A stretch of DNA of 64,000 nucleotides, from the IMG/VR virus record IMGVR_UViG_3300021962_000032; one strand, given 5' to 3'. Source of the DNA: a virus. The translations under genes and the position numbers were made by a program. Position 1 is the first letter of the stretch; each line of letters begins with the position of its first letter. Below, piece after piece: positions 1-62,694 of this stretch. The notes below the pieces were generated by a model, which saw only the letters and a program-made list of their open reading frames with translations, had not been told where the DNA came from and did not search any database.

Positions 1-425
1 TTAGTAGTATAATCTTGAATCGTAATTAGAAGAATTTCTTCGATACAATCTTTTGGATCGGGGAATCCATTCTCTGAAGCAACCTCAATATCAATAGTGT
101 AAAGTTTAATTTTACCAATATCAAACTTTATTTCATCCTCTGGATACTTATCGGAAATATATTGGTAGATATACCGATCATTTCCATAAATTTTAAAATT
201 GTCTACATCATCATATTTTTTATAAAATTCCCTACAATCTTTTACGGATCCAGGTTTAATCTCCTGGACATATTCGCCCTCAAGAGTTTTATGCTTTGTT
301 TTTTTATTTGATTTTATAAAAAGAGTTGGAGAATACTCTTCTTTAAACATTACTTGTTTTCCATTTTCATAACCACGAACGAGAAATTGATTCCCGATCA
401 TTTGCACATTGGTATAAAATCTCAT
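1..425 (-). CDS. gp43: Family B DNA polymerase gp43, N-terminal part (runs off the window)
   Basis: Hand translation from ATG at 425: MRFYTNVQMIGNQFLVRGYENG...YGNDRYIYQYISD...KLYTIDIEVASENGFP (ExoI DIE motif). Sits downstream of regA. ATGA overlap with the upstream ORF. Confidence 0.95.
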   Translation of the reverse strand, partial: MRFYTNVQMIGNQFLVRGYENGKQVMFKEEYSPTLFIKSNKKTKHKTLEGEYVQEIKPGSVKDCREFYKKYDDVDNFKIYGNDRYIYQYISDKYPEDEIKFDIGKIKLYTIDIEVASENGFPDPKDCIEEILLITIQDYTT

Positions 426-709
426 TTAGTAAGTTCTTCGTATTTTTCCAGTAATGTTGCTCTTGGTTTAAAAAGAGTAAGAATTTTATCAGAATGAATA
501 TCAAAATAAGATACACCCGGAGGAGTATAATTATCTAACCAAGATGACATTTCCATATTGGTTTGATCAACCAAATATGGATTGACTAATCGACAATCTG
601 GTTCCCCAAGTTCTGATGAAATCTGCTCAACTTCAGATATCAGAAGTTGATTGTTCATCAACATTAACATCATTATCATTTTGAGATTCTGTTCCGTCTG
701 TTGTTCCAT
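422..709 (-). CDS. Hypothetical protein, Sm/LSm-like paralogue
   Basis: Pattern L-x-NP...W...I-x-S-DKI-x-T-x-x-P shared with ORFs at 633, 4030 and 11039. Translationally coupled to gp43. Start uncertain. Confidence 0.75.
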   Translation of the reverse strand: MEQQTEQNLKMIMMLMLMNNQLLISEVEQISSELGEPDCRLVNPYLVDQTNMEMSSWLDNYTPPGVSYFDIHSDKILTLFKPRATLLEKYEELTK

Positions 710-1040: not shown

Positions 1041-1069
1041 ATTATATCAAGAAAAAAGAGGGGTGTCAA
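1041..1069 (-). promoter_or_regulatory. Consensus sigma70-type early promoter for the Sm-like genes and gp43
   Basis: Minus strand TTGACA-N17-TATAAT with extended TG (TGATATAAT). Confidence 0.85.
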
Positions 1070-1121
1070 CTGGATTTTGCCAGTGTCCCCTCGGCCGACG
1101 ATATTTGGGTAATCCCCAAAT
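1052..1121 (-). ncRNA. Candidate ~70-nt late small RNA (two hairpins, U-tail)
   Basis: TATAAATA at 1123-1130, then hairpin ATTTGGG-GATTA-CCCAAAT, linker ATCGTCGGCC, stem GAGGGG..ACTGG-CAAAAT-CCAGT..CCCCTC and T6. No ORF. Confidence 0.45.
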
Positions 1122-1122
1122 T

Positions 1123-1130
1123 TATTTATA
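1123..1130 (-). promoter_or_regulatory. T4-type late promoter TATAAATA
   Basis: Exact gp55 consensus immediately after the FkbM stop. Confidence 0.7.
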
Positions 1131-1721
1131 CTAGTAGTTTAATTTTTCAAAAGCCCAATCATATGGATGGAGAGCTTGAACTTGAGTATACCTCATTCCA
1201 TGAAGCATATTTCTTATAGGATCACCATAGTATTCTAAATGTATAAATTCAAATTCTATTCTTTTTATATCATATTTTTTCCAATCAAAAGTCAACATGA
1301 CTTCACCATCCATCCCCTCAACATCAAGATATAACCAATCCAAATAATTTATTTTATGTTCCATCAATAAATTATCAAGTGTAATACACGGAGATTTAAA
1401 AGAATTTATCTCAGTATCACAACCAGGACAATGCATATGTTTGTACAAATGCTCAATCTTAGATGATGCCTTTTCATAGGAGGAAATAGAATCTCCTTCA
1501 AAATAGAAGATTTCCATTTCCTCTTCTTTTTGAAGGGGAGTTTTTATAGCTCTCTGATCAAAAATGCAATTTTCGTACCTACTATAACATTCCTTTAAAG
1601 AATCTATAAGTAGGGGATTTGGTTCTACAAAAATTCCCAAGTCAATTTGTTCATAATTTGATAGCAAATAATTCGATAGATCATCGTAACCTTTATTTGC
1701 ACCAACTTGCACTATTCTCAT
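1131..1721 (-). CDS. FkbM-family SAM-dependent methyltransferase
   Basis: VQVGANKG, FVEPNP, ITLDNLL, YLDVEGMD, IEFE motifs typical of FkbM/Methyltransf_21. Confidence 0.85.
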   Translation of the reverse strand: MRIVQVGANKGYDDLSNYLLSNYEQIDLGIFVEPNPLLIDSLKECYSRYENCIFDQRAIKTPLQKEEEMEIFYFEGDSISSYEKASSKIEHLYKHMHCPGCDTEINSFKSPCITLDNLLMEHKINYLDWLYLDVEGMDGEVMLTFDWKKYDIKRIEFEFIHLEYYGDPIRNMLHGMRYTQVQALHPYDWAFEKLNY

Positions 1722-1748
1722 TTTTATTAATAAAAAATAATTACCCTT

Positions 1749-1756
1749 TATTTATA
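1749..1756 (-). promoter_or_regulatory. Late promoter TATAAATA overlapping the hsp20 stop
   Basis: CTA TAA ATA on the minus strand. Confidence 0.65.
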
Positions 1757-2280: not shown

Positions 2281-2302
2281 ATTATTATATATCACAAAGC
2301 AT

Positions 2303-2327
2303 AAAAAAAGGGAGTGTGGAACTCCCT
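2303..2327 (-). terminator. Intrinsic terminator after regA
   Basis: AGGGAGT-TCCAC-ACTCCCT followed by a T-run. Confidence 0.85.
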
Positions 2328-2333
2328 ACAAAA

Positions 2334-4029: not shown

Positions 4030-4323
4030 TCAAACGATTAATTTTTTATTAGGAGTCATGAGTTTACTGCCAAACATTTGATTATATTGTTCAACGATAC
4101 CTTCGTCTGGATCAGCAACGTAAATAATAAACTTTAAAGATACTTCAATTTCTTGATTTTCTTTACTCAAAAGTGGAGACCAAGGAGCAAATCCGATCTT
4201 TCCCATTTCAGATGGAAAAGCAACAATAGGATTCTTGAATTTTAAGTAAGTATCTGTTTCTTCTACAATATTGGTGATTACATCTTCACCAGTGGAAAGA
4301 CGAACCAATTTTACATTTAACAT
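4030..4323 (-). CDS. Hypothetical protein, Sm/LSm-like paralogue
   Basis: VKLVRLSTGEDVI...KNP...FAPW...IIYVADP. Confidence 0.8.
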   Translation of the reverse strand: MLNVKLVRLSTGEDVITNIVEETDTYLKFKNPIVAFPSEMGKIGFAPWSPLLSKENQEIEVSLKFIIYVADPDEGIVEQYNQMFGSKLMTPNKKLIV

Positions 4324-62635: not shown

Positions 62636-62694
62636 GAATCTTATTCGGTCTCTCACTGGGTTATTTATGAGGGGGGTCTGGGGGAATTTTTTAC

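Follow-up and report, generated by a model that had tools for sequence, protein, structure and literature searches.

A conserved candidate small RNA gene of T4-like cyanophages with complementarity to host 5S ribosomal RNA

A sizeable share of the Synechococcus and Prochlorococcus in the ocean dies from infection by T4-like cyanophages. The stretch of DNA analysed here, referred to as the window, comprises 64,000 nucleotides (nt) of the IMG/VR virus record IMGVR_UViG_3300021962_000032 and is a fragment of a T4-like cyanomyovirus; the record has a length of 91 kb and is estimated to be ~48% complete. On the minus strand, the gene for the gp44 clamp loader is followed by an LSm-like gene (4030-4323), a DNA methyltransferase, gp62 and regA, then by hsp20 (1752-2189), an FkbM-type methyltransferase (1131-1721) and a gap of 102 nt, and finally by two genes of the DUF6561 family (633-1028 and 422-709) and the gp43 DNA polymerase. 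This study concerns the 102-nt gap and the element that it contains; all element coordinates refer to the minus strand, and no open reading frame (ORF) exists on the element strand within the gap. Comparison with related phages tips the balance slightly towards reading the gap as a single-copy gene for a late small RNA (sRNA), the 5′ seed of which would be directed against host 5S ribosomal RNA (rRNA) and the terminator of which would also insulate the upstream genes and, in this lineage, carry the early promoter of the LSm-like/gp43 operon.

Directly past the FkbM stop codon (TAG, 1133-1131), the sequence TATAAATA (1130-1123) forms a late promoter with a TATA box of the type recognized by T4 gp55. 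It is followed by a first hairpin of 7 bp at the DNA level, in which 1121-1115 pair with 1109-1103 and which is an insertion specific to this lineage, and by the linker AUCGUCGGCC (1102-1093). The seed, CCCAAAUAUCGUCGGC (1094-1109), includes the box characteristic of the family, AAUAUCGUCG (1105-1096), and is antisense to nt 67-82 of host 5S rRNA. The terminator is a two-tier hairpin with an outer stem of GAGGGG (1092-1087) and CCCCUC (1063-1058), an inner stem of ACUGG (1084-1080) and CCAGU (1073-1069) and a conserved apical loop, CAAAAU (1079-1074), and ends in a U6 tail (1057-1052). The same bases as the tail lie within the spacer of an early sigma-70-type promoter (1041-1069), which consists of TTGACA (1069-1064), a 17-nt spacer and TATAAT (1046-1041). 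This promoter agrees with the consensus at 12 of 12 positions, possesses the TG of an extended -10 and is the sole perfect match within 6 kb. Its -35 hexamer is located in the 3′ side of the terminator hairpin, its spacer includes the U-run and the apical loop occupies the position of an UP-element (-44 to -40). An earlier sequence-only reading of this DNA had described a perfect late promoter, two hairpins, a linker and a U6 tail in an ORF-free stretch, with the TTGACA of a perfect sigma-70 promoter in the 3′ arm of the terminator, and each of these features was recovered at its coordinates.

The predicted late RNA has a length of ~61-68 nt (1050-1117), its start, near 1117, being placed by the T4 rule and its 3′ end lying in or just past the U-run; both ends are deduced from the sequence. 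The strand of the element folds with -25.5 kcal/mol (z = -2.7), and the predicted RNA adopts a short 5′ stem, then the unpaired seed and then the terminal hairpin. Because the predicted start falls inside the first hairpin, only the three G-C pairs of that hairpin would be present in the RNA. Two further interpretations were considered and dropped. An anti-terminator pairing between CGUCG and UGACG was abandoned since the box is unchanged when TTGACG becomes TTGACA, and a sigma-54-type reading of TGGCA...TTGA was abandoned since the spacing is wrong.

The family of related elements was sampled in three independent ways: with a 16-mer from the hairpin (100 cyanophage copies), with the late promoter together with the box, and with the neighbouring protein only, for which an alignment of the second LSm-like gene was used to find 80 loci. 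The element lies upstream of the LSm-like gene and on the same strand in 70 of the 80 loci chosen by protein, in which the LSm-like proteins are 43-54% identical to that of the window. BLAST searches with the gap revealed a 66-nt core that is 76-92% identical in ~290 cyanophage records; the flanking hsp20 DNA is only ~65-80% identical. Overall, most of the T4-like cyanophages sampled, comprising ~300 isolate records and hundreds of metagenomic contigs, have a single copy of the element per genome. The element as a whole is conserved far beyond chance. In the family, N[A/C]TAAATA is separated from a conserved G by AT-rich sequence, most often 5 nt long. The box AAUAUCGUCG-N-CGC comes next, followed in some copies by a mini-hairpin; then come the outer stem (6-7 pairs), which encloses an inner stem with invariant closing pairs (UGG/CCA) and the apical loop, and finally the U-run. 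The box, in the form (G)AAUAUCGUCG-N-CGC, is the most conserved part of the family and lies outside both the promoter and the terminator; its 11 nt are identical in 45 of the 65 protein-anchored copies. The apex of the hairpin, GGCAAAAUCC, is also conserved; the apical loop is identical in 47 of the 65 copies and elsewhere varies to CACAAU, CCAAAU or CAAAAA. Of 74 box-anchored copies, 72 have a T-run behind the hairpin, and the other two are chance matches. Predicted RNAs of the family measure 53-68 nt with a mode of 57, and in most relatives the RNA would begin directly with GAAUAUCGUCGNCGC. The linker that the sequence-only reading had singled out coincides with the most conserved part of the family. 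The first hairpin, which that reading had taken as part of the RNA, is an insertion in only ~15-18% of copies, occurs in several sequence forms (similar insertions are present in S-SKS1 and in the metagenomic contigs L076 and L117) and is missing from most relatives; together with the predicted start that cuts through it, this leaves the role proposed for it without support.

A covariance model of the element identifies exactly one strong copy in each of S-RIM8, P-SSM7, S-SM2, S-SKS1, Syn9, S-PM2 and the record of the window, scoring 75-100 bits against at most 27 bits for the next match, and no copy in P-SSM2, P-SSM4 and P-HM2. Interpretation as a multi-copy repeat was rejected, as no second copy exists within the window or the 91-kb record. 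The element occupies two alternative positions, between hsp20 and the LSm-like genes or between hli and the psbA region. It is abutted by hsp20 in ~36 of 63 loci, and in most relatives the hsp20 stop directly overlaps the late promoter of the RNA; in S-PM2 it is the stop of hli03 that overlaps TAAATA. FkbM or small inserts of 140-290 nt sit just upstream of the element in ~40% of loci. In the window (1121-1756, minus strand) the FkbM methyltransferase gene is flanked on both sides by an identical 10-mer, TATAAATAAA, one copy of which lies at the hsp20 stop (1756-1747) and the other after the stop of FkbM itself (1130-1121). Judging by these flanking 10-mers and by the inserts found at this point in other loci, the late-promoter sequence appears to be a place where insertions recur.

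The sigma-70 promoter is laid over the 3′ arm and the U-run in ~90% of box-anchored copies, including that of the window; among the protein-anchored copies, TTGAC is found in 51 of 65 and the -10 in 63 of 65. The overlay is missing from Syn9, S-PM2 and about ten metagenomic variants, all of which nevertheless retain the late promoter, box, hairpin and U-run. Six or seven of the variants without the overlay carry a second late promoter after the U-run, and in S-PM2 the next gene is convergent, so that nothing lies downstream to be promoted.

The terminator hairpin is supported by covariation, as the sequence-only reading had suggested could be examined among relatives. In a protein-anchored alignment (A6), 92.3% of cells are paired compared with 82.8% in shuffles (none of 500 reaches the observed value), double-change cells number 87 compared with 28 in shuffles, and controls in which the alignment was slid show 49-66% pairing. 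Compensatory changes are seen at six of seven pairs in the outer stem and at two of five in the inner stem. The outer stem accordingly takes forms such as GAGGGGC/GCCCCUC, GGGAGGU/ACCUCCC, GGGGAA/UUCCCC, GAGGAG/CUCCUC and GGGGAC/GUCCCC, and the inner stem ACUGG/CCAGU, CCUGG/CCAGG, UAUGG/CCAUA and GUUGG/CCAAC. In the predicted folds of all representatives, the 5′ box is unpaired and the RNA ends in a hairpin. The covarying hairpin and the U-run are what would be expected of an ORF-free transcript with an intrinsic terminator, as is typical of an sRNA. Comparison with Rfam 15, also proposed in the sequence-only reading, assigned the element to no family: the whole window gave no match at the gathering threshold (the abiF motif RF03085, manA, wcaG and PhotoRC-II included), and at E values of up to 10 it gave just two chance-level matches of 13-15 bits.

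As a separate observation, the 16-mer of the inner hairpin, ACTGGCAAAATCCAGT, also matches 24 contigs of unrelated, apparently enterobacterial, phages (L009, L012, L026, L033, L084 and others), in which it constitutes the first hairpin of the Hfq-binding sRNA IsrK (RF01394), beside the C4 antisense RNA. Given the size of the database, this identity of stem and loop is probably a coincidence.

The sequence TATAAATA alone is not enriched in the window (eight occurrences against 11 expected). The motif [A/C]TAAATA, on the other hand, occurs 23 times on the gene strand and three times on the other strand, being about eight times commoner on the former, and 14 of the 23 gene-strand occurrences fall in the 4% of the DNA that is non-coding, 15-40 nt ahead of long ORFs. 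Judging by its placement, it clearly behaves as a late signal in this phage. Applying the criterion of [A/C]TAAATA at 15-40 nt before a long ORF, likely late promoters of the minus strand are located at 62668, 60344, 40413, 26440, 23319, 19839, 17930/17918, 16960, 13979, 12930 and 1755. In the family, N[A/C]TAAATA precedes the element in 97 of 99 copies retrieved via the hairpin and in 60 of 65 retrieved via the neighbouring protein; in the latter, the distance to the conserved G is most often 5 nt. In T4, the TATA box of late promoters spans -13 to -6 and the DNA just past it is rich in A and T (PMC2988020), as is the spacer between TAAATA and the conserved G. Since the modal spacing fits the geometry of T4 late promoters, the conserved G is the predicted +1. 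The candidate would thus have its own promoter directly upstream at the level of motifs, as is expected of a trans-acting sRNA. The discrete late sRNA of the sequence-only reading is strengthened by these comparisons as a promoter-to-terminator unit with a conserved seed and a U-tail; the RNA as such stays a prediction.

To test a match to host 5S rRNA, 5S genes were located with RF00001 in Synechococcus MIT S9451, RCC307 and PH41509 and in Cyanobium N.Huapi. In the host family, nt 65-82 of 5S rRNA read GCGGCGACGAUAUUUGGG, with which the 5′ end of the consensus RNA, GAAUAUCGUCGCCGC, pairs over 15 contiguous positions. For the window seed, contiguous Watson-Crick pairing amounts to 14 pairs with the majority form of 5S and 16 pairs with the GCGCC type; the 3′ arm of the first hairpin, CCCAAAU, contributes the extra pairs and so lengthens the antisense match. 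The 5S segment is present in 99 of 121 host-family genomes at just 1-3 sites per genome, which fall inside 5S genes in those genomes with RF00001-mapped 5S genes, and a reversed control pattern has no match in the 121 genomes. The 61 distinct seeds of the family reach a median of 16 contiguous pairs (range 13-18) with some 5S variant, compared with a median of seven for shuffled seeds, of which only 2% reach at least 11. When the complement of an 11-mer is sought in five host-family genomes, 11 of the 13 sites are 5S genes. The target search for GGCCGACGAU-like sequences envisaged in the sequence-only reading therefore has an answer, the complement being found in host 5S rRNA. Full-length duplex energies were uninformative, shuffles giving similar values, and a cofold comparison and contiguous-pairing statistics were used instead. 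In co-folding, the heterodimer is predicted to be 8-12 kcal/mol better than the two monomers, with the terminator hairpin kept. A phage-encoded target was also considered and rejected: across five phage genomes, a 9-mer complementary to the box recurs at no conserved second site.

Variation in the seed mirrors that in 5S rRNA. The 5S core positions that never vary (A, A, U and A) face RNA positions that never vary. At nt 68 of 5S rRNA, C replaces G in 10 of 99 genomes, and the N position of the box opposite shows C/U to G; at nt 72, A replaces C (23 of 99), matched by G to U in the seed; at nt 77, G replaces U (28 of 99), matched by A to C; and at nt 70 and 73, A replaces G, matched by C to U. 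For each of the three seed transversions that would break pairing, an exactly complementary 5S allele exists. A conserved seed, predicted to be unpaired and with changes matched to those of its target, is a further property of base-pairing sRNAs, which the element appears to have at the level of pools. Seed variants AUAUCUUCGCCGC and AUAUCUUUGGCGC were noticed in the IMG/VR contigs L016, L036 and L073; their counterparts by complementarity, the 5S variants GCGGCGAAGAUAU and GCGGCAAAGAUAU, occur in small host-family genomes (1.1-1.9 Mb), a size that suggests Prochlorococcus-type hosts.

For the ends and timing of the transcript, its binding to 5S rRNA in cells and its consequence, we infer the following course of events. 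RNA polymerase carrying gp55, the late sigma factor of the phage, would start ~6 nt past TATAAATA, near 1117, and transcribe ~60-68 nt before stopping at the two-tier hairpin and U-run. The unpaired 5′ region would then serve as an antisense seed against nt 65-82 of 5S rRNA, that is, the 5′ strand of helix V, loop E and helix IV. The RNA would most plausibly act on nascent or free 5S rRNA, which it could keep from folding or assembling or could mark for cleavage, and the consequence would be a shutdown of host ribosome production late in infection. The hairpin would also terminate transcription arriving from hsp20 and FkbM, and its 3′ arm and U-run would carry the consensus sigma-70 promoter from which the LSm-like genes and gp43 are transcribed early. 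Late transcription through the -35 hexamer might, quite speculatively, occlude this early promoter, an idea of the sequence-only reading. The wider proposition that a late cyanophage RNA pairs with host 5S rRNA or its precursor, stops or redirects ribosome biogenesis or feeds nucleotide recycling, and has a seed that co-evolves with host 5S rRNA is advanced more tentatively, as we rate its chances at a little under even.

Several observations weigh against a 5S-directed late RNA. The mirrored variation is apparent only between the pools of phages and hosts and not in known pairs, and the frequencies do not agree in the two pools, with G at the N position in 20 of 61 distinct seeds and the matching C in 10 of 99 genomes; against the majority 5S, seeds with G at N form 11 pairs, a mismatch and three pairs. 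Access of the seed to its target is uncertain because the segment is base-paired and protein-bound in mature 5S rRNA. The RNA appears dispensable in some lineages, since P-SSM2, P-SSM4 and P-HM2 are devoid of it. The z-score of the window's own fold is modest (-1.8 to -2.7). Finally, conservation of the apex GGCAAAAUCC may partly serve the promoter, as it is kept mainly together with the sigma-70 promoter, at -44 to -40.

Other explanations can be offered. The locus might be a terminator/early-promoter cassette of the PeSL (promoter-early stem-loop) kind with a late promoter for 'middle-like' read-through, in which case no RNA would function and the 5S match would be incidental. All parts of such a cassette are present (a stem-loop, a near-consensus sigma-70 promoter, a Shine-Dalgarno sequence and a start codon), the promoter overlay is found in ~90% of copies, the element stands at different module borders in different phages, and the interval from regA to hsp20 in this window contains another hairpin followed by an extended -10. 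Moreover, cyanomyoviruses are without MotA and AsiA, and their replication genes are thought to have tandem early and late promoters (PMC2984593). The element is, however, single-copy and belongs to no repeated family, and read-through from the late promoter to the genes is disfavoured by the strong terminator that separates them. The cassette would also leave unaccounted for that the most conserved part, the box, lies outside promoter and terminator, that box variation mirrors 5S variation, and that copies without a sigma-70 promoter or a downstream gene keep the promoter, box, hairpin and U-run; we thus regard it as unlikely. A seed RNA could instead arise when the upstream mRNA (hsp20, FkbM or hli) is cut near its 3′ end, TAAATA being conserved for some other reason. 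RNA close to terminators is a common source of sRNAs, which counts for this possibility, as does the position of the element, always behind a co-oriented gene whose stop is often overlapped by TAAATA. The upstream gene nevertheless varies (hsp20, FkbM, hli, gp212 or small inserts) while TAAATA and its 5-nt spacing are constant, the spacer is AT-rich as after T4 late TATA boxes, and late genes at other places in the window bear the motif too. Processing from the upstream mRNA accordingly seems improbable to us.

A late sRNA may also be real and have a partner other than 5S rRNA, either another RNA or a protein for which it is a ligand or sponge, such as rings formed by the LSm-like proteins of the phage. 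Three genes of the window encode the LSm-like fold of the PDB entry 3BY7, a hairpin with a U-tail is the module bound by Hfq-type rings, and the conserved apical loop is unexplained by 5S pairing. Most Prochlorococcus also lack hfq (PMC2518516), which can be counted on the same side. An LSm partner is opposed by the distribution of the genes, which are present in ten of ten genomes, including three without the RNA, and 24-28 kb away from it in four. As for another RNA, no other conserved complement of the box was detected in five phage genomes, and 5S rRNA is the sole recurrent site in host-family genomes; the allele-by-allele mirroring of 5S rRNA would be left unexplained. We consequently give a different partner little credence, and prefer the reading of the gap as a gene for a late sRNA with a seed against 5S rRNA.

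The two genes downstream of the element were predicted to be Sm-like in the sequence-only reading, and structural models bear this out: both proteins are best described by the Sm/LSm fold, a small bent five-strand beta-barrel, and this assignment holds at the level of modelled structures. The first (633-1034, with its Shine-Dalgarno sequence AGGAG at 1034-1030) probably starts at ATG 1019 (MAVKIAIL...), with an alternative at 1028, and encodes 128 residues. It scores 25 bits against Pfam DUF6561, and its AlphaFold2 (AF2) model has a predicted local distance difference test value (pLDDT) of 76, exceeding 90 in the folded core; the best PDB match of the model is 3BY7, with a template-modelling (TM) score of 0.82-0.89, and Sm/LSm chains rank next. 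The second (422-709), followed directly by the gp43 DNA polymerase, encodes an 83-residue DUF6561 protein (84.5 bits; mean pLDDT of the AF2 model 93), whose modelled structure matches 3BY7 and TIP60 best (TM score 0.74-0.83), followed by Sm/LSm proteins; TIP60 is a designed particle containing a near-copy of the 3BY7 sequence. The DUF6561 family profile matches 3BY7 with E = 7e-5, and the third paralogue (4030-4323, minus strand) matches it in sequence with E = 1e-7. The three paralogous LSm-like genes (4030-4323, 633-1028 and 422-709, minus strand) are thus found within one replication module. All three window proteins share with 3BY7 (cited in PMC3710371) the fold and a C-terminal helix that replaces the usual N-terminal one. 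This comparison concerns the neighbouring genes and not the RNA, and RNA binding is putative for 3BY7 and the window proteins alike.

Each of ten cyanomyovirus genomes searched contains 2-4 DUF6561 matches. In Syn9, S-PM2, S-RIM8 and P-SSM7 the RNA lies 24-28 kb from the LSm-like genes, near hli and psbA. Because all ten genomes have LSm-like genes, three are without the RNA and in four it is distant, adjacency says little on partnership; the suggestion in the sequence-only reading that the neighbouring genes and the RNA work together finds no general rule in the family.

Some observations concern the surroundings and origin of the window. The hairpin in the interval between regA and hsp20 (2283-2333, minus strand; hairpin 2327-2309) is followed by a T-run and then by an extended -10 (TGTGATATATAAT). 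It represents a generic PeSL-type terminator/promoter cassette and scores 14 bits only against the model of the element. A protein that is 87% identical to the first LSm-like protein of the window (P0087) is encoded on a 186-kb contig deposited as a metagenome-assembled genome of a 'Candidatus Nanopelagicaceae bacterium', which is probably a mis-binned freshwater cyanophage. The GCGCC-type 5S, which fits the window seed best, occurs in larger genomes with three rRNA operons. The contig and the fit to this 5S type, taken together, are a hint that the host lives in fresh or estuarine water.

In the literature, as far as the accessible text extends, the antisense RNA CfrI of S-PM2 (cited in PMC2984593) was the only non-coding RNA of T4-like cyanophages found to have been described by experiment. 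If the proposed pairing is true, the RNA would, to our knowledge, be the first viral RNA shown to target ribosomal RNA in bacteria, and would represent a new viral route to taking over the translation apparatus. The seed would then serve as a molecular marker for the range of hosts and might also determine it, and a 5S-matched seed could help to assign uncultured cyanophages to their hosts. The overlap of the RNA terminator with the promoter of the next operon illustrates the tight packing of signals for different phases of infection.

The enterobacterial RNAs RybB and OmrA/B are trans-acting base-pairing sRNAs with a 5′-terminal seed and an intrinsic terminator. The predicted cyanophage RNA resembles them as a short ORF-free transcript with its own promoter, an unpaired conserved 5′ seed and a terminal hairpin with a U-tail. 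It differs from them in being phage-encoded, in its late gp55-type promoter, in the proposed rRNA target and in a terminator that houses a promoter; we know of no chaperone for the cyanophage element. A precedent for an antisense RNA against 5S rRNA in a genetic system derived from cyanobacteria is the chloroplast RNA AS5, overexpression of which destabilizes 5S rRNA and slows growth (PMC3017836). AS5 is cis-encoded opposite the 5S gene, whereas the phage RNA is trans-encoded and would pair over 13-18 nt only.

The arrangement of a late TATA box upstream of a sigma-70 promoter, before a homologue of a T4 middle gene (gp43), resembles the 'middle mode' described for RB49 and cyanomyoviruses (PMC2984593). 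That mode needs a late transcript which reaches the genes, whereas in the window a strong, covarying terminator intervenes and the intervening sequence is conserved too. The closest likeness in layout is to the PeSL cassettes of the T4-like phages RB49/phi1, PST/T4 and nt-1/KVP40 (PMC2839356, PMC4122927), papers in which cyanophages are not mentioned. Both are intergenic arrangements of ~100 bp comprising a terminator stem-loop, a near-consensus sigma-70 early promoter, a Shine-Dalgarno sequence and a start codon, and the stem-loop terminator with its sigma-70 early promoter was found in the intergenic gap of the window. PeSLs are situated at borders of differing gene content among relatives, and the cyanophage element, with its two alternative positions and variable upstream inserts, may be placed similarly. 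PeSLs are present in many copies concentrated in hyperplastic regions, whereas the window element is single-copy, and the many clustered copies per genome that mark PeSLs were absent from the ten genomes, in which the next matches reach at most 27 bits. PeSLs are without a late promoter and a conserved 5′ box, both of which the window element has, and, unlike a PeSL, the cyanophage element persists as stem-loop, box and late promoter where the early promoter is missing.

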